Shown in pieces: positions 3,405 through 61,564 of a DNA stretch of 64,000 nucleotides (its first letter is position 1; the number at the start of each line of letters is the position of its first letter). The translations under genes and the position numbers were made by a program. The notes below the pieces were generated by a model. That model searched no databases, was not told the origin of the DNA, and was given only the letters and a program-made list of their open reading frames with translations. Source of the DNA: an uncultured Nitrospirales bacterium (lineage in GTDB: Bacteria; Hydrogenedentota; Hydrogenedentia; Hydrogenedentales; GCA-2746185); NCBI GenBank assembly GCA_964411925.1, contig CAYPNI010000002.1, positions 1,653 through 65,652 of the forward strand, given 5' to 3'.

Positions 3405-4516
3405 ATCGTCTCGATCGTTACTTGCTGCTGGCCGTCCTGAGGCCATCCAGCCTGGCGTTTGCGGTTTCGTCGGTTTTCTTCCTCGCGCAGGAGATCAACG
3501 AACGATCACGATCCATCCTGGCCCAGGTAGTCGAGTTTACGGATCTGGCTCGGCTCACGTTCTACCTGTTCCCGTCGCTGTTGCCGTACGTACTGCCGGT
3601 GACGCTATTTTTCGGGGTATTGGCGGGATACGGGAAACTGGCTGAGCGTGGTGAACTGACGGCGATGTTTGCGGCAGGAATGTCGGCCCGGCGAATGTTT
3701 GCACCGTCGATCGTGTTGGCCGGCACGTCGATCGTCGCCATCGTCGCAATCCAGAATTACCTGCAACCGCTCGGCTTCTCCCGCGCGTACAACCTGATTC
3801 GCGCTGAACTTCCCGCCCGTGCCACGATCGACAGGCTCGAGCCGGGCGTGGTGCACAAGATTGGGAATTCGCGTATTTATTTCCACAGCAGCGACCCTGA
3901 TTTGAATGAGGTTTACGGCGTGGACGTCGTACGATTTGAGCCGGGGCAGGTGGCCACGGTGTTCCACGCCGAATCGGCGCACGTCGTAAAGGAGCCGTTC
4001 GGACAGTCGCTGGTGCTCGGCCGCGGGTTTACCGTCTCGTCCGATCGAATTCGCTCGTCGATGGAGCGCGCAATACTCCGGATTCCTGGCCCGGACCTTA
4101 CTTCCGGGTCGTTGAGAAAAACCCGATCCGGATCGAGCCTCCAAGAATTGTTCGCATTGGATAGGGACTTGACGGCCGCGGAGGAGGAATCGTCCACGCC
4201 GTCGAATCGGCTCGAGTTGCGGAAAACCAGACAGGAGATCTCCGATCGCCTGAGCCTGCCGTTTGCCGCGCTCGGTCTGGCGGCGATCGCGCCGCCGCTG
4301 GTGATCTGGCTCAACCGGAACCGCCGAACCTCCCGGGTGCGCTCGTTTGCGATCGGGCTCGGCATATTGGTCGCGTTCTACGTAGCCCGAACCATGCTTC
4401 AGCCGGAGGATTTGGTAGCGCTTGAGGCGGCGCTGGCGCTCGGTTGGCTGCCGAATGTTGCGGTGCTGGCCGCGGCGCTCCTGATGTATCGGCGGTTAGC
4501 CCGCGCTGCGGGCTAG
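3401..4516 (+). CDS. LPS export ABC permease, LptF/LptG (YjgP/YjgQ) family
   Basis: N-terminal MNRLDRYLL, typical of LptF/LptG. Multi-TM permease with a central periplasmic domain. ATGA overlap with lepB. Confidence 0.8.
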   Translation: MNRLDRYLLLAVLRPSSLAFAVSSVFFLAQEINERSRSILAQVVEFTDLARLTFYLFPSLLPYVLPVTLFFGVLAGYGKLAERGELTAMFAAGMSARRMFAPSIVLAGTSIVAIVAIQNYLQPLGFSRAYNLIRAELPARATIDRLEPGVVHKIGNSRIYFHSSDPDLNEVYGVDVVRFEPGQVATVFHAESAHVVKEPFGQSLVLGRGFTVSSDRIRSSMERAILRIPGPDLTSGSLRKTRSGSSLQELFALDRDLTAAEEESSTPSNRLELRKTRQEISDRLSLPFAALGLAAIAPPLVIWLNRNRRTSRVRSFAIGLGILVAFYVARTMLQPEDLVALEAALALGWLPNVAVLAAALLMYRRLARAAG

Positions 4517-4521
4517 GGACG

Positions 4522-5637
4522 GTGCGGTTGAAAATTCTCTCGCGACACCTCGGGTCCTCGATCATCAGTGCGTTTTCGATCGCGTTACTCGCGCTGTGTT
4601 TTCTGTACGTGTTGATCGATCTCGTCACGCGTTTGATCGACGACGTGGTCGAGTTCGGCATACCCTGGACCGCTGTCCTGCGGTACTACGCGGCGATCGT
4701 TCCCGTCGCGATTGTGGAGTACCATCTGGCCGGCTTCGCATTGCTCATCGCCGTGCTCGCTGTCATGGGAGCGCACGCCCGCCGGCAGGAACTCACGGCG
4801 ATGCTCGCCGCGGGCGTCCCGCTGCACCGGCAGGCGCTGCCCGCACTTACCGTCGCGCTGGTCGTCATGGCCGGATTGCTGGCGACGTCCCAATGGGTCG
4901 CACCGCAGTCCGAGCGCGAGAGGATGTCGTTCGAGGCGGAATACCTCTCGGAATCGGTACTCGAATACTGGGGAATTCGCGAACCCGTGAGCTGGTCGAG
5001 TCTGGAGGGCGGGTGGACTTGCCACATCACCAAGTTCAATCGCGTCGCGCTCTCGGGGGAGGAGGCCTTTCTACTTTCGCTCGCCGAGGGTCGGGAGGAA
5101 CACATCCGCGCGAAGCGAATTTTCTGGGACCCGGGACGCCGGGCGTGGATTCTGGAAGACGGATCCTGGGCCGTCTATCAGGCGCGGGAGGGTTCTGACG
5201 GCAACTCTGCGATGACCGAACAGCGGATCACCCAGATCGAGGCCCCCCTGACCGAGACCCCTGAGGAGCTATTCGAGCCGTCAGACCCGCCGGCCGGGTT
5301 CTCGACTTCGAAGCTCCCGGCCATCATCCGCTCCGGGGAGAGCCGAAACGTCCCTGTGCGCGCATTGCGCGTGGAGTTCCATTCCAGGTTTGCGAGCGCA
5401 GCGCTTCCGGTCGTGATGGTAGTGCTCGCGGTGCCATTGGGTTCCCAGATTCGCAGGGGAGGCCGTTCGGCGGCGATTACCGTGGCCGTGGGTTTGGCAC
5501 TGGCCTACCTCATTCTATTCGCGATTAGCTTGAATCTTGGGCGTATCGGCCGGATTGAGCCTGTATGGTCTGCATGGCTGACGAATCTTGCGTTTGGCGG
5601 GGTGGGATTGGTGCTGTTTCGTCGCGCTCCCACGTGA
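4522..5637 (+). CDS. Second LptF/LptG family permease
   Basis: A GTG at 4522 gives VRLKILSRHLGSSII..., an LptF/G-like N-terminus right after the stop of the upstream permease at 4514-4516. The rest is TM-rich. The ORF-track start at 4444 is probably too far upstream. Confidence 0.7.
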   Translation: MRLKILSRHLGSSIISAFSIALLALCFLYVLIDLVTRLIDDVVEFGIPWTAVLRYYAAIVPVAIVEYHLAGFALLIAVLAVMGAHARRQELTAMLAAGVPLHRQALPALTVALVVMAGLLATSQWVAPQSERERMSFEAEYLSESVLEYWGIREPVSWSSLEGGWTCHITKFNRVALSGEEAFLLSLAEGREEHIRAKRIFWDPGRRAWILEDGSWAVYQAREGSDGNSAMTEQRITQIEAPLTETPEELFEPSDPPAGFSTSKLPAIIRSGESRNVPVRALRVEFHSRFASAALPVVMVVLAVPLGSQIRRGGRSAAITVAVGLALAYLILFAISLNLGRIGRIEPVWSAWLTNLAFGGVGLVLFRRAPT

Positions 5638-7399: not shown

Positions 7400-9424
7400 G
7401 TGGATCGGATGATGCGTTTGATAATGCCGTGCGCCGCGCTTGCGCTGGTGGCGGGGTGCGCGACGACGCCCGAGGGAGCGGATTCGACTCCGCGCCTGAA
7501 TTCGGGCAGCAGCTCGGCGTCGCACATGGCGGAGCACATGCAGTTTGAGCCGCTGCCGCTGGCGACGGTCGATGCCGTGGAAGATCTCTCCGCACCTGAA
7601 CCGCGGCCCACGGCCGAGCTCATCGCCGAGGCCCGAGAGGCGTTTGCAGCGGCCAATACGGCGATTGAAGCGGGCGACGAGGAAGCGGCCTACCAGAATT
7701 ACACGATCATGATGGAGCGGTTGCTGGAGGCCGACCTGGATCCGGCGACGTTCTACGGATTGCGCGAGGAATTCTCGGGCATCCTTTCGCAGTCGTTCGA
7801 AATCGCGCGGAACTACGACCGGCCGGACCACGAATCGGGGACGGGCGACTATCTCGCGGACTTCGGCGTGGACCACGCGCAGCCGCTCAACGCGCGCGTC
7901 CAGGCGGAAATCGACGCCATCCAGCGCGTCTATCCCAAGAGCTTCCAGGCGGGACTCGATCGCAGCTACCGGTATCTGCCGCATATCCGCGCGGAATTCG
8001 CGAAGGCGGGCCTACCCGAGGACCTGGTCTGGCTCGCGATGGTGGAGAGCCAATTCACGCCGAAAATCAATTCGCATGCGGGCGCGGGCGGCATGTGGCA
8101 ATTCATGCGCAGCACAGGGCGCCGGTACGGCCTTTCGAACGACTGGTATCTGGACGAACGCTACGACTGGAAGCAGTCCACGCAGGCGGCGGTGCAATAC
8201 CTCTCGGACCTTTACACGATGTTCGACGGCAATTGGCCGCTCGCCATCACCGCGTACAACATGGGTGAGGCGGGTCTCGAAGGCGCGATCGCGTCCACCG
8301 GCGGCGAGCGCGACCTCTGGCGCCTGATCGAAACGCCGCCGGCATCGCGGCGCATTCGCCTGGAATCCAAGCGCTTCTACGCGAAGTTTCTGGCTTCGGC
8401 CATCGTGGCGAATAACCCGGAGCAGTACGGGTTCGAACGCCGGCCGCAGGACGAAGAGCGCACGGAGTACGTGACCGTGGACGGTTCGTATTCTCTCTCG
8501 GACGTCGAAGACCAGATCGGTGCGGCGCGGGGCAGCCTCGCCCGGCTGAATCCTCAGTATCTACGCGGATATACGCCGCCGGCCCGCGTGACGCAGCTGG
8601 CGGTCCCGACGGAACTTCGCGAGAAGACGGCGAGCGCGATTGAACACATGCCGGAGATGCGCCTGGGCAGCCACACGGTGCAGCGTGGCGAGACCCTCTC
8701 GGGAATCGCTTCAACGTACAAAGTGACCCTTGCCGAACTGCAGCGCACGAACAACATCAAGTCGCCCAAGTCGCTCCAGATCGGGCAGAAACTCATTATC
8801 CCCGGCTTCGAGGAATCGTCGAGCCCGGTGGTCGCGGCCGAACCGGGCGCGACGACGTACACCGTGCGGCGCGGGGACAGCCTCTCGACCATCGCCGCCG
8901 CGCACCGCGTGACGGTGCGTGACCTGCAACGCTGGAACAACATGGGCAACAGCACGACGATCACCGCGGGGAAGCGGGTGGTCGTCGCCGCATCGGCCGC
9001 GCCGGCCAACACGAAGACCGCAGCCGCGCCGTCGAAATCCGGCGACGTCGTATATCACACGGTCAAGAAGGGGGAATATCCGGGCAAGATCGCCAGCAGT
9101 TACGGCGTCGCCCTGGAGGATTTCCTTTCGTGGAACAACCTCAACAGTCGCTCGACGATTCGCGTTGGTCAGCGGCTCAAGATCCTCACGCCGGCCGCCA
9201 AGCCCGAACCGCAGGTTGTCGCCGCGGCGACGGTTGAGGGTCTCAGCATCCCGCGCACGCACGTCGTGGCGCGCGGCGAGTCTGCGTGGACGATCGCGCA
9301 AAAGCACGGCGTCGCGCCGACCGACTTGCTCAAGTGGAACCGGCTGAGCTCGGATTCCGTGTTGCGCGAGGGCGACCAACTCGTGATCGACAATCCGGAT
9401 TCGACGGAACGGCCCGCGTTCTAA
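7400..9424 (+). CDS. mltD: Membrane-bound lytic murein transglycosylase D-like lipoprotein with 4 C-terminal LysM domains
   Basis: Lipobox LALVAGC. SLT domain ESQFTPKINSHAGAGGMWQFMRSTGRRYGL...AYNMGEAG. Four LysM repeats (HTVQRGETLSGIAS..., YTVRRGDSLSTIAA..., YHTVKKGEYPGKIAS..., HVVARGESAWTIAQ...). GGAGGAGG SD ahead of GTG 7400 / ATG 7409. Confidence 0.8.
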   Translation: MDRMMRLIMPCAALALVAGCATTPEGADSTPRLNSGSSSASHMAEHMQFEPLPLATVDAVEDLSAPEPRPTAELIAEAREAFAAANTAIEAGDEEAAYQNYTIMMERLLEADLDPATFYGLREEFSGILSQSFEIARNYDRPDHESGTGDYLADFGVDHAQPLNARVQAEIDAIQRVYPKSFQAGLDRSYRYLPHIRAEFAKAGLPEDLVWLAMVESQFTPKINSHAGAGGMWQFMRSTGRRYGLSNDWYLDERYDWKQSTQAAVQYLSDLYTMFDGNWPLAITAYNMGEAGLEGAIASTGGERDLWRLIETPPASRRIRLESKRFYAKFLASAIVANNPEQYGFERRPQDEERTEYVTVDGSYSLSDVEDQIGAARGSLARLNPQYLRGYTPPARVTQLAVPTELREKTASAIEHMPEMRLGSHTVQRGETLSGIASTYKVTLAELQRTNNIKSPKSLQIGQKLIIPGFEESSSPVVAAEPGATTYTVRRGDSLSTIAAAHRVTVRDLQRWNNMGNSTTITAGKRVVVAASAAPANTKTAAAPSKSGDVVYHTVKKGEYPGKIASSYGVALEDFLSWNNLNSRSTIRVGQRLKILTPAAKPEPQVVAAATVEGLSIPRTHVVARGESAWTIAQKHGVAPTDLLKWNRLSSDSVLREGDQLVIDNPDSTERPAF

Positions 9425-10029
9425 CGCGACATCCGGGCAGGCCGGGAGCGACCGGCCTGCGCACAGATCGCGTCGAACAGGCGCGAGACGGGCTCAATTC
9501 CGAAGTCGTCAAAGTTTCTCGGGTTGGTCCAAAACTCCTCGAGCCGGCCGCGGTGTTCGTGCTCGTACATGATCACCTTGATCATCATTTGGGCCTTGTC
9601 CAGGCCGCGCAGCAGCCGGGCCTCGCGGCTTGACGCCTGCAGAAACTCGCGGTGATACGCGGCATACCGCTTGTCGAATGAATCGAGCATCCGCTCGGTG
9701 ATGGCCTGCTCGGCCTCGGCCTTCGCCTCGCGTAGATGCTGGTCCACGGCCGGCATGGGAACGTCCATTGTCACCGCCTCGGACAAGTCGTGCGTGAGGG
9801 CCATCGCGAGCACTTTGGCCTGGTCGAACTCGCCCGGGCAATGCTCCGTCACCAGCAGCGCCATGAGCGCGACGAAATGGCTGTGCGCGGAGACGCTCTC
9901 GGGCTCGGAGACGCCACGCAGGAGAAACCCCGCGCGCGGGACGCGGTCCAGCGGGTGAATCGCTTCGAAGAGGGAGAGCAGTCGCTGTTCGAACGAGGGC
10001 ATCGGCGCGAGTATGCCAGAGCGGCGCAT
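9421..10029 (-). CDS. HD-domain phosphohydrolase (YfbR-like 5'-deoxynucleotidase family)
   Basis: ESVSAHSHFVALMALL...THDLSEAVTMDVP, an HD motif arrangement. The start is ambiguous (M at 10029 or 10002). Confidence 0.65.
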   Translation of the reverse strand: MRRSGILAPMPSFEQRLLSLFEAIHPLDRVPRAGFLLRGVSEPESVSAHSHFVALMALLVTEHCPGEFDQAKVLAMALTHDLSEAVTMDVPMPAVDQHLREAKAEAEQAITERMLDSFDKRYAAYHREFLQASSREARLLRGLDKAQMMIKVIMYEHEHRGRLEEFWTNPRNFDDFGIEPVSRLFDAICAQAGRSRPARMSR

Positions 10030-10087
10030 TGGCTCGAAACGCCGCCGACAGGTAGAATGGGCGCTCTTCTTTGAGCGGGACGACCCC

Positions 10088-10675
10088 ATGAGCGACGCCG
10101 GTTACATCAACTACTACGACATTCTGGGTCTGCGCGACAACGCCAACCCCGGCGAGGTGCGCAATACGTACCGCACGAAAATGAAGGCGCTGGTGCAGGA
10201 GATCAAGCGAAGCACCATCACGGAGGACCGGCGCGCGCAGTTCATTCTCGAGATGGCCAAGATGAACGGCGCAGTGATCGTCCTGCGCGACACCGCGCGT
10301 CGCGAGGCGTACTGGAAGGAGCGCGAGGAACTGATCGCGCTGGAGAAGCGGTGGTGCGAGGCGGCGGACCGCGACCCCGATCCGGAAAAGACGGACTTGC
10401 TGCGCCGCGAGTTTGACGGGCGAATCCGCTCATTCTTGAGCAAGTACGTCGAGGAAACGATGCTCGAAGCCGCGCTGGACAAGGAAGTCGCGGAGACAAG
10501 CGGCTGGAACGTCTATTACTCGCGCTATGCGTTGAACCTGCTGCGGCACTACCGCCACCTGCTCTACCACGACATCCTCGAACGCCTGCCCTATCACGCC
10601 GTGACGCGGCCCGCGATCGACTGGACCGAGCGCGCGAGGCTGGTCGAGCGCGTGGTATCCGGGAAGGGGGCCTGA
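10088..10675 (+). CDS. Hypothetical protein with an N-terminal J-domain-like region lacking the HPD motif
   Basis: YYDILGLRDNANPGEVRNTYRTKMKALVQEIKRS resembles J-domain helices I-II, but VQE replaces HPD. Confidence 0.55.
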   Translation: MSDAGYINYYDILGLRDNANPGEVRNTYRTKMKALVQEIKRSTITEDRRAQFILEMAKMNGAVIVLRDTARREAYWKEREELIALEKRWCEAADRDPDPEKTDLLRREFDGRIRSFLSKYVEETMLEAALDKEVAETSGWNVYYSRYALNLLRHYRHLLYHDILERLPYHAVTRPAIDWTERARLVERVVSGKGA

Positions 10676-10677
10676 AC

Positions 10678-11790
10678 GTGGCCAGAAAGCAATCGATCGC
10701 GCCAAAGTCCGTCAACCCGGAAGCGGTCGCGGAGGCGATTGCCAAGAGCGTGGCGGACGGCGACATCGTCAATTTCCGGCTGCTGTTCTCGTCGTTTTCG
10801 CCCGCGCGGGCGGATTCGAGCGAAGCATTCAGCGACGAGAAATACGCCTACCTGCTGCCGACGGACGAGGAGCGGCGCGACGCGGCGTTTACGGGAGCGC
10901 TCGGCGCGGCACGCAGCGTGGAGACGCGGGCGCTCGTGGACCGCGAACTCGCGGCGAACCGGCCGGCACAACTTCCATCCGAACTGGTACTCCTGCTTGC
11001 GGACAACGCGGTGCGGCTGGGTAAGTGGACCAGCGCGTCGCAGGCGTACGAGCTGTTGCGTTTGCGCCGCCGCATGCAGGAGGAATTCCTTAAACAAGGG
11101 CTGGCGGCGCTCGATTCGGGCGACATCGGCCGGGCGGTGCGGGGTGTGCGAATCGGCGCGGCATTGGCCTACGACTATGCGGCGTTCCCCGAGCCGATGC
11201 CGATGGTGCCGCAGTATCAGAGCAAGGCGCTGATGTTGCACGCGCTCTACCCCATGCGCGCGGAGGATTGCCTCGCGCTGGCCGAGCCGGAGGCGCACGT
11301 CCAGACTGCGTTGAACTATCTACTCGTCGATACAACGAGCGCGGGACGGCTCGAGTCCGCGCCGCTGGAGAAACGGATCGCGTTCGTGAAAGCGCTCGTC
11401 GCGGAGATCGATCCTGACTGGGCGACATTCGTAGCGCGGTTCGCGGACGCGTGCCGGCTCACGCTCGAATTCGGTGAACGGTCACGGCGGCTCGGCCGGC
11501 ACGAGGACGAGACGCTGGTTGACGAAATTGAGGAACAGCAGTCGGACGATCCGTGGGCCATCACGCGCGCACTGCTGGGACGCGACATTCCGGGGGCCGC
11601 CTGGTGGCAATACTTAAAGGAACTGGCGTATGAGCATCCCGCATCGGTCCTGTTTATCTCGCGTCAGGTGATCGGCGAGCACGAAATCCTGATGCCGCGC
11701 CTGCGGGCCGGGGCGCCGCTGGCCCCCGCCCTGGGCCTCGCGGAGCTTGTATCGGAATCGGCGGCAGGGACTGGCGCTTCGGGGGCGTAG
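10678..11790 (+). CDS. Hypothetical protein, co-oriented 3 nt downstream of the J-like gene
   Basis: 370-aa ORF starting at GTG with no recognisable motifs. High-GC coding bias in this frame. Confidence 0.5.
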   Translation: MARKQSIAPKSVNPEAVAEAIAKSVADGDIVNFRLLFSSFSPARADSSEAFSDEKYAYLLPTDEERRDAAFTGALGAARSVETRALVDRELAANRPAQLPSELVLLLADNAVRLGKWTSASQAYELLRLRRRMQEEFLKQGLAALDSGDIGRAVRGVRIGAALAYDYAAFPEPMPMVPQYQSKALMLHALYPMRAEDCLALAEPEAHVQTALNYLLVDTTSAGRLESAPLEKRIAFVKALVAEIDPDWATFVARFADACRLTLEFGERSRRLGRHEDETLVDEIEEQQSDDPWAITRALLGRDIPGAAWWQYLKELAYEHPASVLFISRQVIGEHEILMPRLRAGAPLAPALGLAELVSESAAGTGASGA

Positions 11791-12606: not shown

Positions 12607-13445
12607 AGACGCTCGTCTTCGCCGACGTCCACCTCAAGGTGGACGCCGCGAATCGTGGTACGGTTGACGAGTTCGTGGCGTTTCTGCGCGATATCGCCCC
12701 CTCCGAGTTCGATCGCATCGTCGTGGTGGGCGATCTGTTCGACTTCTGGTTCGAATACCGTCACGTCGTGTTTTCGGGTTACTTCGATGTTCTGCGCGCG
12801 CTCGCGGACTTGCGCGACGGCGGAATCGAATGCCATCTCGTCTGCGGCAATCACGACTTTTGGGCGGGACGCTTTTTCCGCGACGAGCTGGGGTTCAAGG
12901 TGCACCCGGACGCGTACGACACGCGGATCGGCAACCGGCGCGTGCGCTTCGTCCACGGTGACGGCGTGAATCCCGCGGACAAAGCCTACGGGCGGTATAA
13001 ACGCCTGATGCGTTCCTGGCTGGGCGTGAAACTCATGGCGCTGATTCATCCCGACTGGGCGATGGCGATTGCGCAGCGCGTCTCGCGCGCCAGCCGCCGC
13101 CTGCAATCTCCGCACGGGGCCCTGCGGAGCCGGGAGATCGCCGCTGTCCGGGAGTACGCGCGCGGCGTTCTCGCGGCGGGCGAAACCGATGCGGTCGTTT
13201 GCGGCCACACGCACACGTCCGCGTACGAGGAGTTCGACGCGCCCGGCGGCCGGGGCCTCTACATCAACACGGGTGGATGGGTGGACGAGCGGGTGTATTG
13301 GATTTGGGACGGCGAGACGGTCTCGCGCTATTCCGGACCCCTTGCGGAGCGTCGCCGCGCGCCGGTTTCAGGGGCCGATCAGCGGCAGGATGTGGCCCTG
13401 GGAGCGGTAGATATAGCCCGCCAGAAAGCCGACCAGGCCCAGTAG
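12603..13445 (+). CDS. lpxH: UDP-2,3-diacylglucosamine diphosphatase LpxH-like metallophosphoesterase
   Basis: MKTLVFADVHL...VGDLFDFW...CGNHDFW...VHGDG...CGHTH is collinear with E. coli LpxH motifs. ATGA overlap with lepB copy 2. The 3' end overlaps the convergent PP2C gene by about 78 nt. Confidence 0.75.
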   Translation: MKTLVFADVHLKVDAANRGTVDEFVAFLRDIAPSEFDRIVVVGDLFDFWFEYRHVVFSGYFDVLRALADLRDGGIECHLVCGNHDFWAGRFFRDELGFKVHPDAYDTRIGNRRVRFVHGDGVNPADKAYGRYKRLMRSWLGVKLMALIHPDWAMAIAQRVSRASRRLQSPHGALRSREIAAVREYARGVLAAGETDAVVCGHTHTSAYEEFDAPGGRGLYINTGGWVDERVYWIWDGETVSRYSGPLAERRRAPVSGADQRQDVALGAVDIARQKADQAQ

Positions 13446-14306
13446 CGCGCTGACGAAGAACCACATCAGTTTGAAACCGTGCTTGCGTTTGATCGCGCGC
13501 AGCCGGAAGTACAGCAGCAGGAACGGGCTCGGGCTGACGCTCACCGCGACGACCGTGATGTTGTCTTTACCCCCGTTCTCGTTCGCCATGTTGACGAGGC
13601 GATGGACGATCTCAGCCGCGCTGCCTCCGCGAATGAATTCCGTGCAGATCTCGGCGTCCTTGACCATGTTCACGAGTCCGTCCGAACACAGCAGCAACCA
13701 GTCGCCGGGGACGACGTGCCAGACGTAGCTGTCGATTTCGATCTCGGGACGCGTGCCGACGCTGCGCGTGACGACGTTCCGGCGAAAGTCGAGTTCGGCC
13801 TCGGACTTTGACATGAGGCCGGCCTTCACCTGTTCGTCCACCCAGGAGTGGTCCTCGGTGCGGCCGATGATGTCGCCGTCACGGATGTGGTAGACGCGCG
13901 AATCGCCGACATTGCACACGTAAGCTTTTTTTGGCGACACGAGGCACGCGGCCAGCGTCGTGCCCATGGGTTTGCCGTTCGGATTGAGGTCCTGATTGGT
14001 CTTGAACACACTGGCGTTGGCCATGCGCACGTAACGCGTCATCAGATCGAGCGTGGCGCCGTCGGCGTCGCCATCCGGCCCCGGCTGCGGGGGCGGCTCC
14101 TTAAGGGAATCGCGCAGAATGGATACGGCGAGCTTGCTGGCAATCTCGCCGCCCATGTGTCCACCGAGGCCGTCGGCCACGGCCACCAGCGCACCGTCTC
14201 GAAACAGGTTCAGATTGGGGGTGTCGTCGCGGAACACACCGAACGAGTCCTCGTTCTCGCGCTTTCGACGCCCCATATCCGAGAGCGCGGCGATATCGAG
14301 ACGCAT
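13368..14306 (-). CDS. PP2C-family Ser/Thr protein phosphatase with a C-terminal membrane anchor
   Basis: RRKRENEDSF...AVADGLGGHMGGE...GDSRVY...LLCSDGL...ENGGKDNITVV, then a hydrophobic C-terminus. Confidence 0.8.
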   Translation of the reverse strand: MRLDIAALSDMGRRKRENEDSFGVFRDDTPNLNLFRDGALVAVADGLGGHMGGEIASKLAVSILRDSLKEPPPQPGPDGDADGATLDLMTRYVRMANASVFKTNQDLNPNGKPMGTTLAACLVSPKKAYVCNVGDSRVYHIRDGDIIGRTEDHSWVDEQVKAGLMSKSEAELDFRRNVVTRSVGTRPEIEIDSYVWHVVPGDWLLLCSDGLVNMVKDAEICTEFIRGGSAAEIVHRLVNMANENGGKDNITVVAVSVSPSPFLLLYFRLRAIKRKHGFKLMWFFVSALLGLVGFLAGYIYRSQGHILPLIGP

Positions 14307-14549
14307 CAGTTCGATTCTCCACAACGGTTGCAAAACCTACCAAAGAAAGTTCGTCATGGGCAAACCCGGGGATTGCGTTCGCCAGCGTCGTGCGGCACAG
14401 CGGATCATCGGGCGCGACGATCTGTACGGTTGACCGATTCCCGCAGCCGCGTTACAATCGCACTGAATCGGATCGCGTGGCGCGGCGGCCACGGGCACTG
14501 CGCGATCCGGACTTCATTCCGGGGGAACCGCGGGGCGGTGCGTACGTCG

Positions 14550-16196
14550 ATGCGCGAGTCGACCTTCAGTTCGTTCCTGAGCCACGACGGCAACCGGCGC
14601 GCCCACGATCTCTGCCTCGCGGTGAGCCGCGCGGAGCCCGTCAGCCCCTTGCCGCTCGTGCTGGTCGGCGAGCGCGGCAGCGGCAAGACGCACCTGCTGC
14701 GTTCCGTGGCGCACCGGCTGCGCGCAACGCTTGGCCACGCGGCCATCGTGATGCTTTCGCCGCAATCCAAGCCGGAAGAGATGACGCGGCTCGCGAACGA
14801 TCCCAAACCGATCGACATGGCGCGATACGCCGTATTGCTCATCGATGATCTGCATGGATTCACGGGCCATTTCGACACGCTCACGCGACTCATCGGCGTA
14901 TTCCTCGAAAACGACCACCCGATCATCGTCGCATCCGAAGTGCACCCCGACCGGCTGGCCAGTCTGCCGCCTCCCTTGTCTCGAATCGTCCACGGGGGGC
15001 AGGTCGTGCAGGTGGACGGTGGAGAGGCACAGGCGGCCATCAAGGTGGTCGAAGCGGCCATACGGGACGAGCAGCGCGAGGCGATCGCGAAACTCACCGC
15101 GCGTGTTCGCGAGCTGGAAGCCGCGGGCCCGGAAGGCGTCGCGCTCGATTTTGAAGAAAGCGCGGCGGCGAACGAGGAGCTGCAACAACATCTCACGGAA
15201 GCGCGGGAGGAAATCGAACAACTGCGCGGCGAGCACGCACTGCTTGCGGTGGCGGCGCGCGAGGCCGTCGTCCTGCGTAAGAAACTCGACGACCTGGAAC
15301 GTGAGCGTGTTGAGCGTGCGACGCAGCCCGCCGAGGATTCGTCCCCGCAGACGCAAGAACTCAAGCGCAATCTCGACGAGGCGCGCTATGACGCGCAAAA
15401 GGCGCGTGAGGAAGCACGGGGCATGCTCGAACGCGCGCAACGACTGCTCGGCGAGTTGCACATGAGTCGCGAATCCTACGAAGCGGCACAGCGCGACCGT
15501 GAACGCCAGCGCGAAGACATTCGCCGGTTTCAGGGGCTGCGGGACGACAACTCGGCGGCGGACGGTTCCGCCGCGCCCACGCAGGCAGCAGAGGCACCGC
15601 TGGCCGCCCCGGCGGAGGACCCGGCGCTGATCGCCATGCGGGAGGAGCTTCACCGGCTTCAGGAAAGCCTGGTTCGCGCGCGCGCCGAGCGAGACAATGC
15701 CAAAAGCCATCTCGCGCACATTCGCGAGGCGCTGGACACGGCACTCGCGGACCTGGACCAGCTGCGCACGGACGCCGCGCAGGACGCGGCGGCGCACGCG
15801 GCGCGCGTGACGGAACTCGAACAGGCGCTGGTCGCGCGCCAATCTGAAGTCGAGCGGTTACAGGCCATGCAGCGCGCCTTTACGGACGAAGTGCGCGCGT
15901 TGCAGTCGCAGGTGACCGAGGGCGCGGAGGTGCTCGAGCGGCTCATGGAATTGTTTGGCGCCGGCCCGGCGCAGAGCGATGACGCGGACGGACCGAACGA
16001 AACGGAGGAAACTTCGCCGGAGAGATTGGCGCCGCGGGCGGATTTTGGCGATGGGATTCGACTCGTATCGCGCCGCGGCGCAGCACTGCATCACATCGAG
16101 GAGCTGCGCGGTCAGTTGGCGTCGTTCTTTCCCCCAAACCTGCCGCCGCTCGAAACGGGCGACGACGAGGCGAGCGGCCGGGCGCAATCCGCCTGA
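14550..16196 (+). CDS. Hda/DnaA-like P-loop ATPase domain fused to a ~350-aa Glu/Arg/Ala/Leu-rich coiled coil
   Basis: N-terminal PLPLVLVGERGSGKTHLLRSVAH...VLLIDDLHGF...IIVASEVHPDRL...PPLSRIVHGGQVVQV matches the DnaA domain III / Hda layout. The remainder is a heptad-like REEL/AQ-rich sequence. The part of the ORF-track frame upstream of 14550 is antisense to the PP2C gene. Confidence 0.65.
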   Translation: MRESTFSSFLSHDGNRRAHDLCLAVSRAEPVSPLPLVLVGERGSGKTHLLRSVAHRLRATLGHAAIVMLSPQSKPEEMTRLANDPKPIDMARYAVLLIDDLHGFTGHFDTLTRLIGVFLENDHPIIVASEVHPDRLASLPPPLSRIVHGGQVVQVDGGEAQAAIKVVEAAIRDEQREAIAKLTARVRELEAAGPEGVALDFEESAAANEELQQHLTEAREEIEQLRGEHALLAVAAREAVVLRKKLDDLERERVERATQPAEDSSPQTQELKRNLDEARYDAQKAREEARGMLERAQRLLGELHMSRESYEAAQRDRERQREDIRRFQGLRDDNSAADGSAAPTQAAEAPLAAPAEDPALIAMREELHRLQESLVRARAERDNAKSHLAHIREALDTALADLDQLRTDAAQDAAAHAARVTELEQALVARQSEVERLQAMQRAFTDEVRALQSQVTEGAEVLERLMELFGAGPAQSDDADGPNETEETSPERLAPRADFGDGIRLVSRRGAALHHIEELRGQLASFFPPNLPPLETGDDEASGRAQSA

Positions 16197-16244
16197 AGCC
16201 GCCCGGCGCTTTATCGGCTGCACGGGTGTCCGTAGAATCACACG

Positions 16245-17321
16245 ATGTCCCAGTGGATTTGGCTCACGGTTGTGCTGCTGTCGGCCCCTCAGGGCGAGAT
16301 CGGCTATCTCGTGCGACCGAACGCGGGCCCGGCGCAAATTCATGTCGTCTCGCTCTCGACTGGAGTTACCCGGACGATCGGTGTCGACGGGGCGCGGGAC
16401 ACTCCGAGATGGTCACCCGACGGGCTGCGCGTGGCGTACACGGTCGAGACGCCGCGCGGTACCGGCGTGTACGTGGCGGAGCTAAACGGGCCGGGCGGGC
16501 AGTACGTCGGCGGCGCGGAGGCGGACCGGCACGGACCGGTCTGGTCGTCGGACGGCTCGCGGATCGCCTATACGGTCGGACACGGTCTGGAGGCACAAGT
16601 CGCTGTCTTCGATTTCACGACGGCCGTGGAAACCGTGTGGGGCGGTGGTAGAACGAGCCTCACCTCGCCTGTGTGGGCGTCGAGCCGGTTGGTCCGCCTG
16701 CTGATCGATCCCGACCGAGACCTCACGCCGGCACTTCCATCGGCGATTCCGGGCGCGTGGAACGACTCGCGCGAACTCCTGATCGCCCTCGGCTTTGCCG
16801 GTTCGCCCGGCGCGATGACGACGGATCTGCTTGTGGTATCGGAGAACGACGTGACCGAGATCCCGCTGTCCAACATGCCGTCGGATGGGGACTACGCTGA
16901 GTTTGCCCCCGCGGCGGCTGCGGACGCTCTGGCCTTCGAGTCGAACGACGGCGGCGACCGCGAAATCTTCGTGATCACGCGCCGATCGACGTTCGACCTG
17001 AGCAATCATCGCGCGGCAGATTGGCTGCCCGCGTGGGCGCCAGACGGAGGCGCAGTCGCGTTTCAGTCATTCCGGAGCGGCCGCAGTGGAATCTACCAAT
17101 GCGTACCGAGACGGGCCGGGCGTGTACGGTCCATCGTGGCGGAGTCCGCGGGCGATTGTTGGGCGCCGGCGTGGTCGCCGGACAGCCAGTGGATCGCGTA
17201 TGTCGGTGATGCGGAGGGCGAGCCCGCGGTTTACGTCATTCAGCCCGACGGATCCGAGCGGCAACGAATCTCGCCACCGGGGATCTCCGCGGACGTACCC
17301 GCGTGGAGGCCTGTGCGGTAA
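16245..17321 (+). CDS. TolB-like beta-propeller (PD40/WD40-like repeat) protein
   Basis: Repeated W/Y-SPDG-IAY blades (RWSPDGLRVAYTV, PVWSSDGSRIAYTV, PAWAPDGGAVAF, PAWSPDSQWIAYV) with an N-terminal hydrophobic segment. Confidence 0.7.
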   Translation: MSQWIWLTVVLLSAPQGEIGYLVRPNAGPAQIHVVSLSTGVTRTIGVDGARDTPRWSPDGLRVAYTVETPRGTGVYVAELNGPGGQYVGGAEADRHGPVWSSDGSRIAYTVGHGLEAQVAVFDFTTAVETVWGGGRTSLTSPVWASSRLVRLLIDPDRDLTPALPSAIPGAWNDSRELLIALGFAGSPGAMTTDLLVVSENDVTEIPLSNMPSDGDYAEFAPAAAADALAFESNDGGDREIFVITRRSTFDLSNHRAADWLPAWAPDGGAVAFQSFRSGRSGIYQCVPRRAGRVRSIVAESAGDCWAPAWSPDSQWIAYVGDAEGEPAVYVIQPDGSERQRISPPGISADVPAWRPVR

Positions 17322-18283
17322 TGCGCGTCTTCGCCTTTTTGTTGATCCTGGCTGCCGCTGGGGCCGCGTCCGCGCGCGACGAGACGGGCCGGCTCTCGCT
17401 CATCGTCACGCCCAACAACGCGCAGCCGGCCGTGCTCCAGCCGGGTGGCGCGATCGAGGCCCTACTGCGGGAGAATGTACCGCTGCGAATCGAGTCCGCG
17501 GAGGGAAGTGTGCCGCTGGAGTTTCTGTCCGCCCGGCCGTGGCGCGGGCGGTGGGTGATAACCTCGCGTATCCCGGCGTCGGCGCGACCGGGCGCGTACA
17601 CCTTGATCGCGGAACGTGCAGAACGCTCGGACGCCGCATATCGCTCGGTGTATGTGCTGCCGGAGCGGCCCGACACGTATCGCATCGCTCACGTCAGCAA
17701 TCTACGCGTGGGCGATTCGACGCGGGCGGATTCGCAACTGTTCCGGTTGACCGATGCACTCAATGACGGCGCGCCGGATTTGATTCTGATCACGGGTGAT
17801 CTGACTGCCGGCGGCACGGAAGATCAATTCCGAATCGCGCTCGATGTGTTGAACGATTGCCGCGCACCGACCTTGGTTGCGCCCGGCGACGCGGACGATG
17901 CGGAGGGGCTGCTGGAGGCCTACCTCGGCGAGTTCCCGGCCGCGCTGCGGTACGGACCGGACGGCTATCTGCTCTGTCCGCCGCCGTCCCGCGTGTCGCA
18001 GGGCAACGAGGCGCGTTTGCATATTCAACGCCGCGCCATTCGTGCGGCGCGGTGGTCGGTTGGCGCTGTAGCGGCGACCTCGCGCCAGGATTTGCGGGCC
18101 GCGCTGTCGCTGCTCGTGGACGACCCGCTGGACTTTGTCTTCGAGGCCACGACGGTTGAGCGGGCAGTCCCGGCGATCGCCTGGGGCCGGACGAAGTCCT
18201 ACGCGGCGGCCGGCGACCGGCAGATCACGTGGTTCACGGTGAGTCCGCCAGGCATCGTGCGCGCCGAGACCGCTACCGAGTGA
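17321..18283 (+). CDS. Secreted calcineurin-like metallophosphoesterase-like protein, possibly degenerate
   Basis: Signal peptide MRVFAFLLILAAAGAASA. Residues AHVSNLRVGD, ILITGDLTAGG and LVAPGDAD loosely match metallophosphoesterase motifs I-III. TAATG overlap with the TolB-like gene. Confidence 0.5.
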   Translation: MRVFAFLLILAAAGAASARDETGRLSLIVTPNNAQPAVLQPGGAIEALLRENVPLRIESAEGSVPLEFLSARPWRGRWVITSRIPASARPGAYTLIAERAERSDAAYRSVYVLPERPDTYRIAHVSNLRVGDSTRADSQLFRLTDALNDGAPDLILITGDLTAGGTEDQFRIALDVLNDCRAPTLVAPGDADDAEGLLEAYLGEFPAALRYGPDGYLLCPPPSRVSQGNEARLHIQRRAIRAARWSVGAVAATSRQDLRAALSLLVDDPLDFVFEATTVERAVPAIAWGRTKSYAAAGDRQITWFTVSPPGIVRAETATE

Positions 18284-18290
18284 CGCTCGC

Positions 18291-19622
18291 TCAGAGCGCG
18301 CCGGAGGAGATCGATTCGATCATCGTAATGAGCGGCAGGAACATGCCCAACACGATCGATCCGACGATGAATCCCATGATGACAACGAACGCGGGCGTAA
18401 TCGTTTCGGTCAGCCCGTCGACGGCAATCTCGATTTCCTCTTCGTAGCTCGACGCGACCTGGTCCGACACTCGCTCAAGCGAACCGGTTTCTTCGCCGGT
18501 GAGCATCATGTCGACGACGACACCGGAAAGATAGCCCTGCCGCTCCGCGTCGCGGAGCGGCCCCTCCAGACCCTCGCCGCGTTCGACGGAGTCACGCATG
18601 TCCTGGATGACGCCGACATAGGCGCGATTGGCCACGGAGTTCTTGCACAGGTCGAGCGTGGCCATCATGGAAACGCCGCTGCGGATGAGCATGGCGAACG
18701 TGCGGAGGAACTGGGACACGACGCGGCGGCGCAGGATGCTGCCGAGGACGGGAATCCTGAGTTTGACCTTGTCCGCCTGGAGCTGGCGCACGGGGCTGCG
18801 CACCCACCAGAAGTTATAGGCCAGTATGAGCAGGATTACGACGATCACGAAGGGGAACCAGTAAGCCCGGACCGCGTCGGCCGCATTCATGATGAATTGC
18901 GAGTAGGAATTCAGCTTGACGTCCATCGACTCGAAGATGTCCCGGAACGCGGGAATGACGAAGATGGACAGGATAATTACGAGGCCGACGGCCACGACGA
19001 CGAGGAAGCTCGGGTAAATCAGAGCGACCTGCACGCGCTTTTCCTGACGATCGCGCTGCTCGCGAAATTCGACGATTCGGCGAAGGACGACGGGTAACGT
19101 GCCGCTGGCCTCGGCAGCCTTGATCAGGTTGACTTCGACCTGCGGGAAATAGCGCGCCTCGCGCGCGAACGCCTGCCACAGCGGGTTGCCCGCTTCGACG
19201 TATTCGGCAATACCGGCGACGAGCTGGCGGACGCCCTTCTGTTCGCTGCGGTGGGCGAGTGTCTTGAGACCCTTGAGAATGGGCGTGCCTGATTCGAGCA
19301 TCATGATGAGCTGGCGCAACAGCACGGTTACGTCGCGCCGGCGCACGACACCGCGCGACAGCGCCGCCACGGGAGACGGCGAGGCGGACGCCCTGGGTAT
19401 GCTACGGGTCTCACCGCCGGGCGTCCGGTCGAGTTCGAGTTCCTGCACGAGCCCGCCTGCCTCGGGCAGCGCCGCCGAGCGCGGCGTTTCTTTCTCGTGA
19501 ATTGCGCGACGGCGCGACGTGACGCGGGTGGCCGATTCACTCCGCCTGGACGCGCTGGTCCGTTTCTGGCGTGCCGCGACTTTCGCCTTGGTGCTGGGCT
19601 TTTTCGGCGGGTTCGTGGGCAT
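18291..19622 (-). CDS. gspF: Type II secretion / type IV pilus platform protein GspF/PilC family
   Basis: Two T2SSF repeats (LLRQLIMMLESGTPILKGL... and FLRTFAMLIRSGVSMMATL...) with three TM segments. Preceded by a ~95-aa basic Pro/Ser/Arg-rich N-terminal extension that may not all be translated. Confidence 0.8.
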   Translation of the reverse strand: MPTNPPKKPSTKAKVAARQKRTSASRRSESATRVTSRRRAIHEKETPRSAALPEAGGLVQELELDRTPGGETRSIPRASASPSPVAALSRGVVRRRDVTVLLRQLIMMLESGTPILKGLKTLAHRSEQKGVRQLVAGIAEYVEAGNPLWQAFAREARYFPQVEVNLIKAAEASGTLPVVLRRIVEFREQRDRQEKRVQVALIYPSFLVVVAVGLVIILSIFVIPAFRDIFESMDVKLNSYSQFIMNAADAVRAYWFPFVIVVILLILAYNFWWVRSPVRQLQADKVKLRIPVLGSILRRRVVSQFLRTFAMLIRSGVSMMATLDLCKNSVANRAYVGVIQDMRDSVERGEGLEGPLRDAERQGYLSGVVVDMMLTGEETGSLERVSDQVASSYEEEIEIAVDGLTETITPAFVVIMGFIVGSIVLGMFLPLITMIESISSGAL

Positions 19623-19670
19623 TCTCGTCTATCCTCCGTCGCGTTCCGTTCGCGCCCGTGGGCGCCGCGT

Positions 19671-20648
19671 TCAGTTCGTATCGTTGCTGGTATCGACTAC
19701 GGCGGCACTGTCCGGAGAATCGCCCCCGGTGGCTCGCGCGTCGGCGCCGCGCAATTCGCGCCAATACCGGATCGCATATCCGTCATCGTCGCGGAACGCG
19801 ATCACGGCTTCCACAGCCGCGTACACCGGCCGGTGATTGCCGCCGGGCATGTCCAGTTTCGCCGCGCTGCGCACGCGGAAACACTTCGACTCGAACGCAA
19901 CCCCCGCGGGCTTTTCCCGGGGCGCGAAGGGCGCGACGTCGAGATTGAACGTCGAGGGTTCGCGGCCGACTTTCTGCAGCACGTCGGGCCAATCCCTGAA
20001 TGGGCGTTTTGTGGCAAGATCGGCCGCTTCGTTCTGCGAGATACCAAACGCGGCCGCGAGCGCGCGCGGGCTCGCCGTGTTCAGGTTGAGGTCATCGCCT
20101 GACGGCTCACCGGTGTATACCGTGAAGTCGTTTTGCTGGAGCGATTCGAACTCTTGCGCATCAGCGATCTCGTTTACGCGCAGCGCATCAACGCTTGGCA
20201 ACCGCGAGCCCTTGCCGCGCATCGAGATAAGCTTGTCCGTCGAGGCGGCGTCGAGCCCCATCGCCCGCAACAGGGGCGCGGGCGCGGTGTTCAGGTTGAC
20301 GCGCGCGGATTCGTCTTCGACGGACACCGTCACGTGCTGCGGATAGGCGCCGTCTCCCGTTTGTTCGTGCCGATACGTTGATAAAGTTATTTCGTATGAC
20401 GATTGCGGCTGCGCGGATTCGTCGAGCGCAGACCGGATTTCGCCGATGGCGGCGTATACGCCGCCGGCCGCGAGATTGCGCGCGCGCGTCCGGTGAAGCT
20501 GGACACCCGCGTCGGAAAATTCGAGCCACATGTAGCCCAAGTACGCCGTGCCCAGCAGCGCGAAAATAGCGAGCAGCGCGATCGCGGCGAAGAGCGCCAT
20601 GCCGCTGCGGTCATTCGGGCGAAGGATTGTCATGCGCGAGGGTCTCAT
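19671..20648 (-). CDS. gspK: GspK-like minor pseudopilin
   Basis: N-terminal hydrophobic MALFAAIALLAIFALLGTAYLGY, then two VNLNTAP / LNLNTAS helix-hairpin-helix-like motifs characteristic of GspK. Confidence 0.65.
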   Translation of the reverse strand: MRPSRMTILRPNDRSGMALFAAIALLAIFALLGTAYLGYMWLEFSDAGVQLHRTRARNLAAGGVYAAIGEIRSALDESAQPQSSYEITLSTYRHEQTGDGAYPQHVTVSVEDESARVNLNTAPAPLLRAMGLDAASTDKLISMRGKGSRLPSVDALRVNEIADAQEFESLQQNDFTVYTGEPSGDDLNLNTASPRALAAAFGISQNEAADLATKRPFRDWPDVLQKVGREPSTFNLDVAPFAPREKPAGVAFESKCFRVRSAAKLDMPGGNHRPVYAAVEAVIAFRDDDGYAIRYWRELRGADARATGGDSPDSAAVVDTSNDTN

Positions 20649-21289
20649 CGGACGTGCACCGGGACGACGATCTGGCGGGAGACCTGGAACTGCGCCGGCC
20701 GGTCGGGGTCTTCAATCGAAAGGCTTACGCCGACCGCCGCGGGCTGCCCGGGCTGATTCCACTCATCGACCCAGACCGCACCCGGTCCGGGCGCGAGATA
20801 CTGGACTGCGAACCCCATCACACGCGCGTTCGGGATGACTTCGATCCGGTTGGTCTCGGGAAACCCGCCGCTGAGCGTACCCACGGTGCGTACCAGCACT
20901 CCGACCCCGCCGGCGCGCTCCACGTGATAGCCGACTTTAGCGGGCACCGCAAGCGGCCGATTTGGATCCATCGCCCGGATGGGCACGGCGAGTTGGTCGT
21001 CGCGATGCTGCGCCGGCGGATAGGTGCGCGAGTCCTGTACGCTGCGCGTCGCGCCTTCGATGGCGATACCGGAGACGTCGAAGGAGAGTGTATCGGCGAT
21101 GTCGCGCCGGATTGACTCGAGCGCGAGATCGGCTTTTGCGTCGAGTTCGGCTACGGCTTGCCGCTCGTTCCACGCGGCGATGACGCCGTACAAGGTTGAC
21201 GTGCCGACGGCCATCACAAGCCCGATGATCGACGTCACGACGAGTAGTTCGATGAGCGTAAAACCCGCGCGCGATCGGCGTGCCGTCAT
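20645..21289 (-). CDS. Prepilin-type N-terminal cleavage/methylation domain pseudopilin (GspJ-like)
   Basis: MTARRSRAG|FTLIELLVVTSIIGLV prepilin leader with a G-F cleavage site. ATGA overlaps on both sides. Confidence 0.7.
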   Translation of the reverse strand: MTARRSRAGFTLIELLVVTSIIGLVMAVGTSTLYGVIAAWNERQAVAELDAKADLALESIRRDIADTLSFDVSGIAIEGATRSVQDSRTYPPAQHRDDQLAVPIRAMDPNRPLAVPAKVGYHVERAGGVGVLVRTVGTLSGGFPETNRIEVIPNARVMGFAVQYLAPGPGAVWVDEWNQPGQPAAVGVSLSIEDPDRPAQFQVSRQIVVPVHVR

Positions 21290-21816
21290 AGCCCGACTCC
21301 TTCGGCGCCCGCGCGGGGAATGGCAGAGGTCAGCATGAACTGTTTGAGCCGTCCTTCGAGCTGCCATTGGACTTCCACGGTCAGTTCAACGTAGGCCGCG
21401 TCCTGCGACGGAAGCCGCGCGGAAGCCGACCAGGTGTATCCCCCATAGGTCGCGCGCTCTCGGTCGTACGCGCGGCGCGCGAGCGGCAGGGCGAGCGGCG
21501 GTTCGGTGAACTTCTGCGGAACCGGCCCGTTCTCGCGCGCGGTTACGGGCAGCGGTGCGTTCGGCGTCTGGTCCTGGTAGTTGGGCCATACGAAGAGTTC
21601 GGGCCGGCTCTGAATGAGCGTCAGGTACTCCTGCGCAATGCTTGCCGCGATCTCGTGCGTACGGCTGGATTTCGCCAGGGATTGGCTTCCCAGGAAGAGC
21701 TTGAGGAGGACGGTGGTAGCCACGCCCATGACGACGAGCGCCGTGAGCAGCTCAATCAGCGTGAAACCCGTGGCCCGCCGGCGCGGCGTTGACCGATCCT
21801 GGCCTGGAAACGGCAC
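21286..21816 (-). CDS. Prepilin-type pseudopilin (GspI/GspH-like)
   Basis: ...RRRATG|FTLIELLTALVVMGVATTVLL prepilin signal. GTG start at 21816, start uncertain. Confidence 0.65.
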   Translation of the reverse strand: MPFPGQDRSTPRRRATGFTLIELLTALVVMGVATTVLLKLFLGSQSLAKSSRTHEIAASIAQEYLTLIQSRPELFVWPNYQDQTPNAPLPVTARENGPVPQKFTEPPLALPLARRAYDRERATYGGYTWSASARLPSQDAAYVELTVEVQWQLEGRLKQFMLTSAIPRAGAEGVGL

Positions 21817-61255: not shown

Positions 61256-61564
61256 GTCATGCACTCGCGAAAACTATCCACAGCGCGATCCCGTCCACCG
61301 CGGCTATACAGAGGGGTCGGTTTTTCACCATGCCACAACGAACGGAATCCAACACCGGTGTCAGAAGGAAAGCCCGACGCGGCCCGACTTATCCACAAAC
61401 CGTCCACGAGAACGCTGATTCCGAGAGAACATGACTCGATCGGAGCGAAATCGATGCATTCGTAACCTATATAACTATCTCTATATAGTTCGCGATTGCC
61501 TTCCCGACCGCCTCCTTGTGATTCAATGCCCGTTCGCGACCTGCGAACGAAGGAGGATGCATCC

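Follow-up and report, generated by a model that had tools for sequence, protein, structure and literature searches.

A Hydrogenedentota-restricted protein family joining a reduced DnaA-like AAA+ core to a long coiled coil

Negative control of the replication initiator DnaA is understood for only a few model phyla, with Hda (regulatory inactivation of DnaA, RIDA) and SeqA in Proteobacteria and YabA, Soj and SirA in Firmicutes. Hda, a protein of about 230 amino acids, is a DnaA-like AAA+ module without the DNA-binding domain, and its beta-clamp-binding motif has the consensus QL[SD]L[PF]L. YabA limits DnaA oligomerisation, and the coiled-coil proteins DivIVA/Wag31 are substrates of pairs of Ser/Thr kinases and PP2C phosphatases. 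Here we describe a 548-amino-acid protein encoded at 14550–16196 (+ strand, stop codon included) in a 64,000-nucleotide stretch of contig CAYPNI010000002.1 (assembly GCA_964411925.1), which we refer to as the window. The head of this protein is clearly an AAA+ domain of the DnaA/Hda clade, nearer to DnaA than to Hda. The protein as a whole is best explained as a Hydrogenedentota-specific DnaA paralogue that was cut down to its nucleotide-binding core and set on a coiled-coil stalk.

An earlier note, made from the DNA letters alone, had placed four open reading frames (ORFs) within 13368–18283, and all four were found where it put them. The translation of the 548-amino-acid ORF contains the strings GERGSGKTHLL, LLIDDLHGF and IIVASEVHPDRL, and an identical copy of the protein is present in NCBI (P0001; proteins are given as P numbers and loci as L numbers). 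Eighteen full-length orthologues with 35–66% identity can be aligned from residue 1 onward. The start codon at 14550 is backed by these alignments, because 17 orthologues start at the identical position. AlphaFold2 was run on the alignment of the 18 orthologues (mean predicted local distance difference test score, pLDDT, 76.9) and secondary structure was assigned by DSSP. In the resulting model, residues 1–157 (14550–15020, + strand) form an alpha/beta core resembling DnaA domain IIIa, with five strands and a two-helix insertion (pLDDT 84–93).

The assignment of this head rests on several comparisons. In the Pfam scan, Bac_DnaA (PF00308) matched residues 3–143 (E = 3.9e-12, 47 bits against a cut-off of 23), and neither DnaA_N (PF11638) nor Bac_DnaA_C (PF08299) matched the 548-amino-acid protein. 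The NCBIfam models for DnaA (TIGR00362, 57.6 bits against a cut-off of 343.9) and Hda (TIGR03420, 40.7 bits against 194.8) matched the N-terminal stretch only. A profile of the orthologues found Bacillus subtilis DnaA (8bv3) among PDB chains at E = 1.1e-19, and hhalign of 30 diverse family heads against 20 true DnaAs gave 99.7% probability (E = 1e-26). Domain III of the same B. subtilis DnaA structure was also ranked first by Foldseek against the PDB (E = 2.4e-10, 28% identity), followed by DnaA of Aquifex and Thermotoga and by Hda (3bos, E = 4e-8), all above p97, FtsH and other classic AAA proteins. The likeness to domain IIIa (B. subtilis 8bv3/8btg, Aquifex 2hcb/3r8f; 27–28% identity to B. 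subtilis DnaA) covers the alpha/beta fold, an N-terminal F..F..G.N signature, Walker A (GxGKTHLL) and Walker B (LLIDD) motifs and an HP.RL motif past strand 4. It also includes the two-helix insertion, which lies at the position of the initiator-specific motif (helices 75–83 and 86–90, between strands 65–69 and 94–98 of the AlphaFold2 model). The DnaA/Hda-clade N-terminus claimed by the earlier note is thus upheld by PF00308, by profile–profile comparison and by Foldseek, with no indication of an unrelated AAA clade, and the absence of a DnaA DNA-binding domain agrees with the missing PF08299 match.

We then counted residues per column in an alignment of 164 N-domains of the family. In Walker A (G40–T47, GERGSGKT; 14667–14690, + strand, read from the sequence), 162 of the 164 domains have K46, and 163 have G45. 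The first Asp of Walker B, the Mg-binding D99 (motif L96–D100, LLIDD; 14835–14849, + strand, likewise read from the sequence), is present in 163. These counts indicate that the nucleotide site is under strong selection. The second Walker B position is Asp in the 548-amino-acid protein and varies family-wide (Q in 79, D in 36, E in 22 and G in 11 of 164); the frequent Q fits binding without fast hydrolysis.

The catalytic and DNA-contacting positions of DnaA are not retained in this way. The column of the arginine finger (R285 in Escherichia coli, R230 in Aquifex) falls in the Box VII region (L143–V147, LSRIV; 14976–14990, + strand), where it is occupied by I146 and, across the 164 domains, by L in 66, I in 31 and R in 14. 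This register is shared by hhalign and by the HMMER alignments to DnaA chains of Aquifex and B. subtilis. Just upstream lies a conserved basic residue, which is R145 in the clade of the window protein and R or K at column 144 in 122 of the 164 domains. We rejected R145 as the canonical arginine finger, as it stands one residue before the finger column in three independent alignments and the family-wide Arg stands two before; it may still be a displaced finger. The columns that correspond to single-stranded DNA contacts of E. coli DnaA are acidic or variable, with A, R, Q or D in the V211 column and E (66) or D (39) in the R245 column.

No lid (domain IIIb) is present in the AlphaFold2 model, in which strand 5 is followed by a single continuous helix, 158–257. 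With the lid missing and this helix running on for 100 residues, sensor II is absent as well. DnaA matches stop at about residue 190, with the TIGR00362 model covered up to position 309 of its 437. At the other end, only five residues (MREST) precede the conserved F6 of the AAA+ domain, and no N-terminal clamp-binding motif of the QL[SD]L[PF]L type was found in any of the 18 orthologues. The string QLASFF at residues 522–527 was considered as a clamp-binding motif and rejected, since neither its Q nor its spacing is conserved among the orthologues.

The 548-amino-acid protein is therefore neither DnaA nor Hda and fails the defining tests of both. It lacks domains I, II and IV as well as the lid with its sensor II, and it has neither the canonical arginine finger nor the residues that contact single-stranded DNA nor an N-terminal clamp-binding motif. 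In functional terms, the head has lost DnaA-box binding (domain IV), the holding of single-stranded DNA, closure of the ATP site (lid, sensor II) and the finger-fired hydrolysis in a neighbouring protomer. Unlike DnaA, the protein continues past its core with a coiled coil and a tail, about 390 residues together.

These losses bear directly on whether the protein could be a regulatory inactivator of the Hda type, which would stimulate hydrolysis of DnaA-ATP as in RIDA. Like Hda, it has a DnaA-like AAA+ module but no DNA-binding domain, and it is a plausible regulator of DnaA through heterotypic AAA+ contact; several members of its family are named "DnaA/Hda family protein" by NCBI, and Hda structures are among the Foldseek matches (3bos). 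However, the finger column is hydrophobic, five residues before the domain leave no clamp-binding motif, there is no lid, the TIGR03420 score is far under its cut-off and the head is nearer to DnaA. Hda is moreover found in Proteobacteria and this family in Hydrogenedentota. The residue tests largely refute an Hda-like role, which we regard as very improbable. Of the "Hda-type" module described in the earlier note, the clade assignment stood, but the module is not simply of the Hda type, since it is without the canonical arginine finger, lid/sensor II and N-terminal clamp-binding motif.

Beyond the core, the AlphaFold2 model consists of three long helices totalling about 280 residues, two disordered, low-confidence linkers between them and a tail of about 80 residues that is mostly disordered, with one short helix at 512–524. 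Helix 1 (residues 158–257; 15021–15320, + strand) begins at the position expected for the DnaA lid. Helix 2 (267–334; 15348–15551, + strand) is 47% charged and contains the most conserved block of the coil, LDEARYDAQKAREEARGMLERAQ. Helix 3 (358–469; 15621–15956, + strand; pLDDT 87–94) contains the conserved block EELHRLQESLVRARAERDNAKSHL and shows an unambiguous hydrophobic periodicity of 3.5 residues, which was reached by none of 2000 shuffles. The same periodicity is weaker in helices 1 and 2, where about 2% of the shuffles were as high. The long helices are not sequence repeats. The roughly 350 residues of heptad repeats that had been described before are thus about right in length, at some 280 helical residues plus linkers and tail, but are not repeats in sequence, and their heptad pattern is clear in helix 3 alone.

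No family could be assigned to the helical part, for which SMC and ASRP models reached 14–19 bits against cut-offs of 300–567 (SMC_prok_B, 14 against 567; ASRP, 18.7 against 300). A split ABC head with a hinge, as in SMC, MukB or Rad50, was rejected because both Walker motifs lie within the N-terminal 100 residues. The fusion, which the earlier note did not recognise, is indeed uncharacterised, and its helical half is without an SMC-like or other assignment. YabA and the DivIVA-type proteins, coiled-coil proteins that restrain or anchor others, offer a functional analogy only; they have no relation to it in sequence or fold and no AAA+ head.

The C-terminal residues 496–548 (16035–16193, + strand) form a conserved motif region, RADFGDGIRL...LHHIEELR...FPPNLPPLE...QSA-COOH, with R496, D498, F499, G500, H515, E517 and A548 invariant among the orthologues. 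The motif [LIVM][HRY]H[VI]E was found in 44 of 153 family members, always 19–42 residues from the C-terminus, and about one third of the members terminate in [ST][AIV]. A profile of the motif region (alignment A4) had no match at E <= 1 among 5.8 billion proteins, in a database for which the motif is too short. In a few members of 470–990 amino acids the LHHVE tail is replaced by an MshEN domain, that is, a T2SSE N-terminal domain of the c-di-GMP-binding type (P0238, encoded at 8001–10970 of L016, and also P0233 and P0235).

The extent of the family was determined by an exhaustive profile hmmsearch of 1.84 billion representative proteins (E <= 1e-30), which yielded at least 165 clusters at 50% identity. 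Among the 150 matches listed, nearly all begin no more than a few residues from the N-terminus; the exceptions are a few proteins with short N-terminal extensions and two C-terminal fragments. Protein lengths range from about 250 to 989 amino acids, and the length of the coil is highly variable. A search with the N-domain profile (A2) in a word-indexed database returned 7 short proteins and served as a source of names, not of family size. All members with an organism name belong to Hydrogenedentes, Hydrogenedentota or Hydrogenedentales, including the weakest match listed, and NCBI names them "DnaA/Hda family protein" or "hypothetical". Our literature searches found no study on a DnaA-core/coiled-coil family. 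We conclude that this is a real, uncharacterised family restricted to the phylum Hydrogenedentota.

Gemmatimonadota have put the DnaA AAA+ module to a lineage-specific use of their own, in metagenome proteins of about 650 amino acids (P0026–P0085, e.g. P0027 and P0051) that carry two tandem domain III modules and no domain IV. Both of their modules contain GLGKTH, LLLDD and a Box VII-like motif (RF.GGL). Unlike the window protein, these are complete AAA+ modules with lid-like regions and without a coiled coil.

To place the gene in its genomic context, we added further loci from contig look-ups and from a scan of metagenomes, and used tblastn to score the neighbouring genes. Twelve loci fall in the clade of the window protein (L003 and L013 are on one contig, as are L008 and L009), and the distant set comprises 21 loci with a complete family gene and downstream DNA. 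Two neighbours recur, a PP2C phosphatase and an HD_3 phosphohydrolase.

In the window, the PP2C gene is divergent from the family gene (13368–14306, - strand; the ORF extends to 14333, and 14306 is the probable true start). The product is a membrane-anchored, Stp1/PstP-like Ser/Thr phosphatase, with a match to Pfam PP2C_2 (E = 7.6e-16, 58.7 bits against a cut-off of 24) and 221.5 bits against the NCBIfam Stp1/IreP model NF033484, slightly under its cut-off of 230. From our reading of the sequence, its C-terminus contains the hydrophobic segment LMWFFVSALLGLVGFLAGYIY, with basic residues just before it. The 243-bp divergent intergenic region holds one sigma-70-like promoter match (TTGACC, 17-nucleotide spacer, TACAAT; 14430–14458, + strand), which is weak evidence, with 0.8 matches expected by chance in the scanned region. 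A PP2C gene is located upstream of the family gene in L001–L014, L017, L020, L021, L024, L025, L027, L029, L030, L035 and L041, and it is the divergent upstream neighbour in ten distant loci. The divergent pairing noted before thus proved to be conserved, down to 33–35% identity and also in unrelated gene contexts. In L029, a metagenomic locus, a bactofilin gene (4143–4811, - strand) lies immediately downstream of the PP2C gene on the same strand.

The presence of a phosphatase beside a long coiled coil also suits a different role, that of a cytoskeletal or polar scaffold apart from replication. The head would then serve ATP-dependent self-association, the protein would form a filament or tether at the membrane or pole, and PP2C would erase the phosphorylation that controls assembly, following the logic of DivIVA/Wag31 and PstP/Stp1. 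Such a scaffold would account for the long helices, which differ in length among members and show a clear heptad pattern, the conserved membrane-anchored PP2C as divergent neighbour, the disordered linkers rich in S/T and P, and the C-terminal MshEN domain of some members; a bactofilin gene adjoining PP2C in L029 and type II secretion or pilus genes near the family gene in the window and in L017 point the same way. Yet Pfam and NCBIfam showed no homology to DivIVA or other known scaffold families, the HRDxKxxN scan of the window found no kinase nearby, PP2C is missing beside about half of the distant members and the canonical arginine finger, which drives DnaA-type self-assembly, is lost. A scaffold also leaves the tight operon link to HD_3 unexplained. 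We consider it possible, if rather unlikely.

The HD_3/YfbR-like gene is the most consistent partner of the family. In 18 of the 21 distant loci it is the next gene after the family gene, in the same orientation, with a spacing of -13 to +78 nucleotides and one exception (L039); the two genes overlap by 1–14 nucleotides in L018, L019, L027, L036 and L041. The window copy (9421–10089, - strand, with the true start probably near 10002) encodes an HD phosphohydrolase of the HDDC2 type (PF13023, E = 3.1e-26, 92.7 bits against a cut-off of 22.5) that is 57–66% identical to the operon copies and has solved relatives in PH0347 (2cqz), 1xx7 and human HDDC2 (4dmb). Here the gene is located about 4.5 kb upstream of the family gene.

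PP2C, the family gene and HD_3 stand together as a trio in L029, surrounded by bactofilin and Zn peptidase genes, and in L041, surrounded by GH32 and URO-D genes. Since these two sets of surrounding genes are entirely different, the trio reflects more than inherited synteny of a block. The trio is also present in L017 (11919–16448), where it is followed by MshEN-HDOD and PilB-like genes; in the same locus dnaN starts 6.6 kb downstream, past an intergenic gap of 690 bp. A URO-D-like gene is found shortly 3' of HD_3 in two unrelated loci (L019, 9368–10567; L041, 8426–9709).

If HD_3 rather than DnaA were the client, the head could be a nucleotide-pool sensor that reads ATP/ADP or deoxynucleoside triphosphates, and the protein would control or localise the HD_3 enzyme in a stoichiometric complex without involvement of DnaA. 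Translational coupling or immediate adjacency in 18 of the 21 distant loci speaks for such a regulator, as do the strict P-loop with relaxed hydrolysis residues and the membership of the HD_3 protein in the 5'-deoxynucleotidase/HDDC2 family. In the clade of the window protein, however, the operon is broken, yet the family gene and its C-terminal motif are kept at 45–66% identity, and a stalk of 300–800 residues is not obviously needed for a small soluble enzyme. We know of no precedent for a coiled-coil nucleotide-sensing regulator of such an HD enzyme, and we judge this explanation unlikely.

Our preferred explanation gives both partners a place. Tentatively, and with less than even confidence, we infer that the protein acts as a nucleotide-gated coiled-coil adaptor or tether, possibly as a cap or tether on DnaA, with HD_3 and PP2C as partners. 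The head would be a nucleotide-dependent switch or docking module rather than a DNA-melting motor. The coiled coil, which varies about fourfold in length across the family, would dimerise and set the spacing of the heads, and the C-terminal peptide (...LHH[VI]EEL...acidic...[ST][AI]-COOH) would dock the far end on a partner or at some cellular site. As a cap or tether on DnaA, the head would receive the DnaA arginine finger but would not extend the oligomer, and DnaA would be held or limited. This cap is the most specific mechanism that we propose, because the ATP face is intact and the finger face is dead. The protein may act jointly with the HD_3/YfbR-type phosphohydrolase, a member of the 5'-deoxynucleotidase family with which it would normally be co-transcribed, and reversible Ser/Thr phosphorylation might place it under the control of the membrane-anchored PP2C encoded next to it. 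In its boldest form, a dead-finger AAA+ cap would end or sequester DnaA oligomers, would be positioned by its stalk, switched by PP2C and coupled to deoxynucleotide turnover via HD_3, and would represent a device, not seen elsewhere, by which Hydrogenedentota control the initiation of replication; so complete a picture is speculative, and we think it improbable.

Several observations weigh against the adaptor or tether on DnaA. A link of the protein to DnaA, oriC or replication is a conjecture. The window lacks dnaA, dnaN and any cluster of DnaA boxes; searching it for them returned just the family gene itself and a single isolated box, at 61389. The GC skew of the window is monotonic. With the lid and sensor II missing, ATP binding by the head is a prediction and unproven, and judging from the alignments the conserved R/K that precedes the finger column by one or two positions could be a displaced finger. 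As for the partners, PP2C does not adjoin about half of the distant members, and a six-frame scan of the window did not find the Hanks kinase motif HRDxKxxN. The HD_3 gene is out of the operon in the clade of the window protein, and its product scored 31 bits against a cut-off of 122 for the YfbR equivalog (NF003009).

The gene for the 548-amino-acid protein is followed by one for a PD40 beta-propeller protein (16245–17321, + strand; PD40, E = 1.3e-23), which we rejected as TolB proper on its score against TIGR02800 (101 bits against a cut-off of 343.15); the PD40 repeats alone match. Next is a secreted, degenerate metallophosphoesterase-like protein with a signal peptide (17303–18283, + strand). 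Its Metallophos match (E = 0.0026, 18.7 bits) is under the cut-off of 21.5, and SNLR replaces DxH and PGDADD replaces GNHD, with GD alone kept. Outside the window, these two genes follow the family gene only in L008/L009, which represent the closest relative found (62% identity); other loci have SDR, RelA/SpoT and UvrB, or different genes downstream. The TolB-like and phosphoesterase-like genes, which the earlier note had proposed as possible parts of a regulatory module, therefore drop out of it. Of the four-gene module as proposed, PP2C is conserved by synteny, the PD40 and metallophosphatase genes are local, and the HD_3 partner at 9421–10089 lies outside 13368–18283.

On the left-hand side, a block of genes is present in all twelve clade loci and in L007, which encodes an 883-amino-acid orthologue, as far as the contigs reach. 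Its order is a DnaJ-like gene, a gene for a protein of about 365–370 amino acids, signal peptidase I, an LpxH-like phosphoesterase and the divergent PP2C. The HD_3 gene of the window lies on the far side of this block, divergent from the DnaJ-like gene. The first two genes of the block (10013–11790, + strand) encode a DnaJ-domain protein of about 195 amino acids with a weak J-domain match (E = 2e-4) and the protein of about 365–370 amino acids, for which no family match was found in Pfam, NCBIfam or PADLOC. The pair is kept in all loci with the left-hand block, at 44–75% identity.

This setting also bears on whether the protein could be an ATPase of a mobile element or of anti-phage defence. 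PADLOC gave weak matches to generic P-loop/coiled-coil models (mad8, E = 2e-6; JetC, about 2e-3), but these are limited to the P-loop or the coil. Across the phylum, moreover, the chromosomal place of the gene is stable, with housekeeping genes around it (signal peptidase I, LpxH-like, ClpS/ClpA, RelA, UvrB), and each locus has one copy. A role in defence or in a mobile element appears extremely improbable.

Directly after the phosphoesterase-like gene, a cluster similar to type II secretion or type IV pilus systems (18291–21816, - strand) contains a T2SS F homologue, a T2SSK-like gene and two pseudopilin-like genes, and is conserved in L008. Further away, the one stretch of low GC content in the window (0.59, GC skew about 0) encodes two adjoining TIR-domain proteins with Sel1 repeats (33517–36254, - strand) and may be a defence or foreign island. 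The GC skew is unusually high, at 0.13–0.26, over about 30 kb (26000–56000), compared with 0.01–0.09 in the first 26 kb, without a turning point.

A phylum-wide, strongly conserved DnaA paralogue with an ATP pocket and a stalk would be a natural candidate for a new type of regulator of initiation or of the chromosome, and the family would be a clear example of the re-use of an initiator AAA+ module. Should a scaffold apart from replication prove to be its true role, this would still be a new family with a defined domain architecture. For Hydrogenedentota, a phylum known mainly from metagenome-assembled genomes, the trio of PP2C, DnaA-core protein and HD phosphohydrolase provides a concrete and testable hypothesis.

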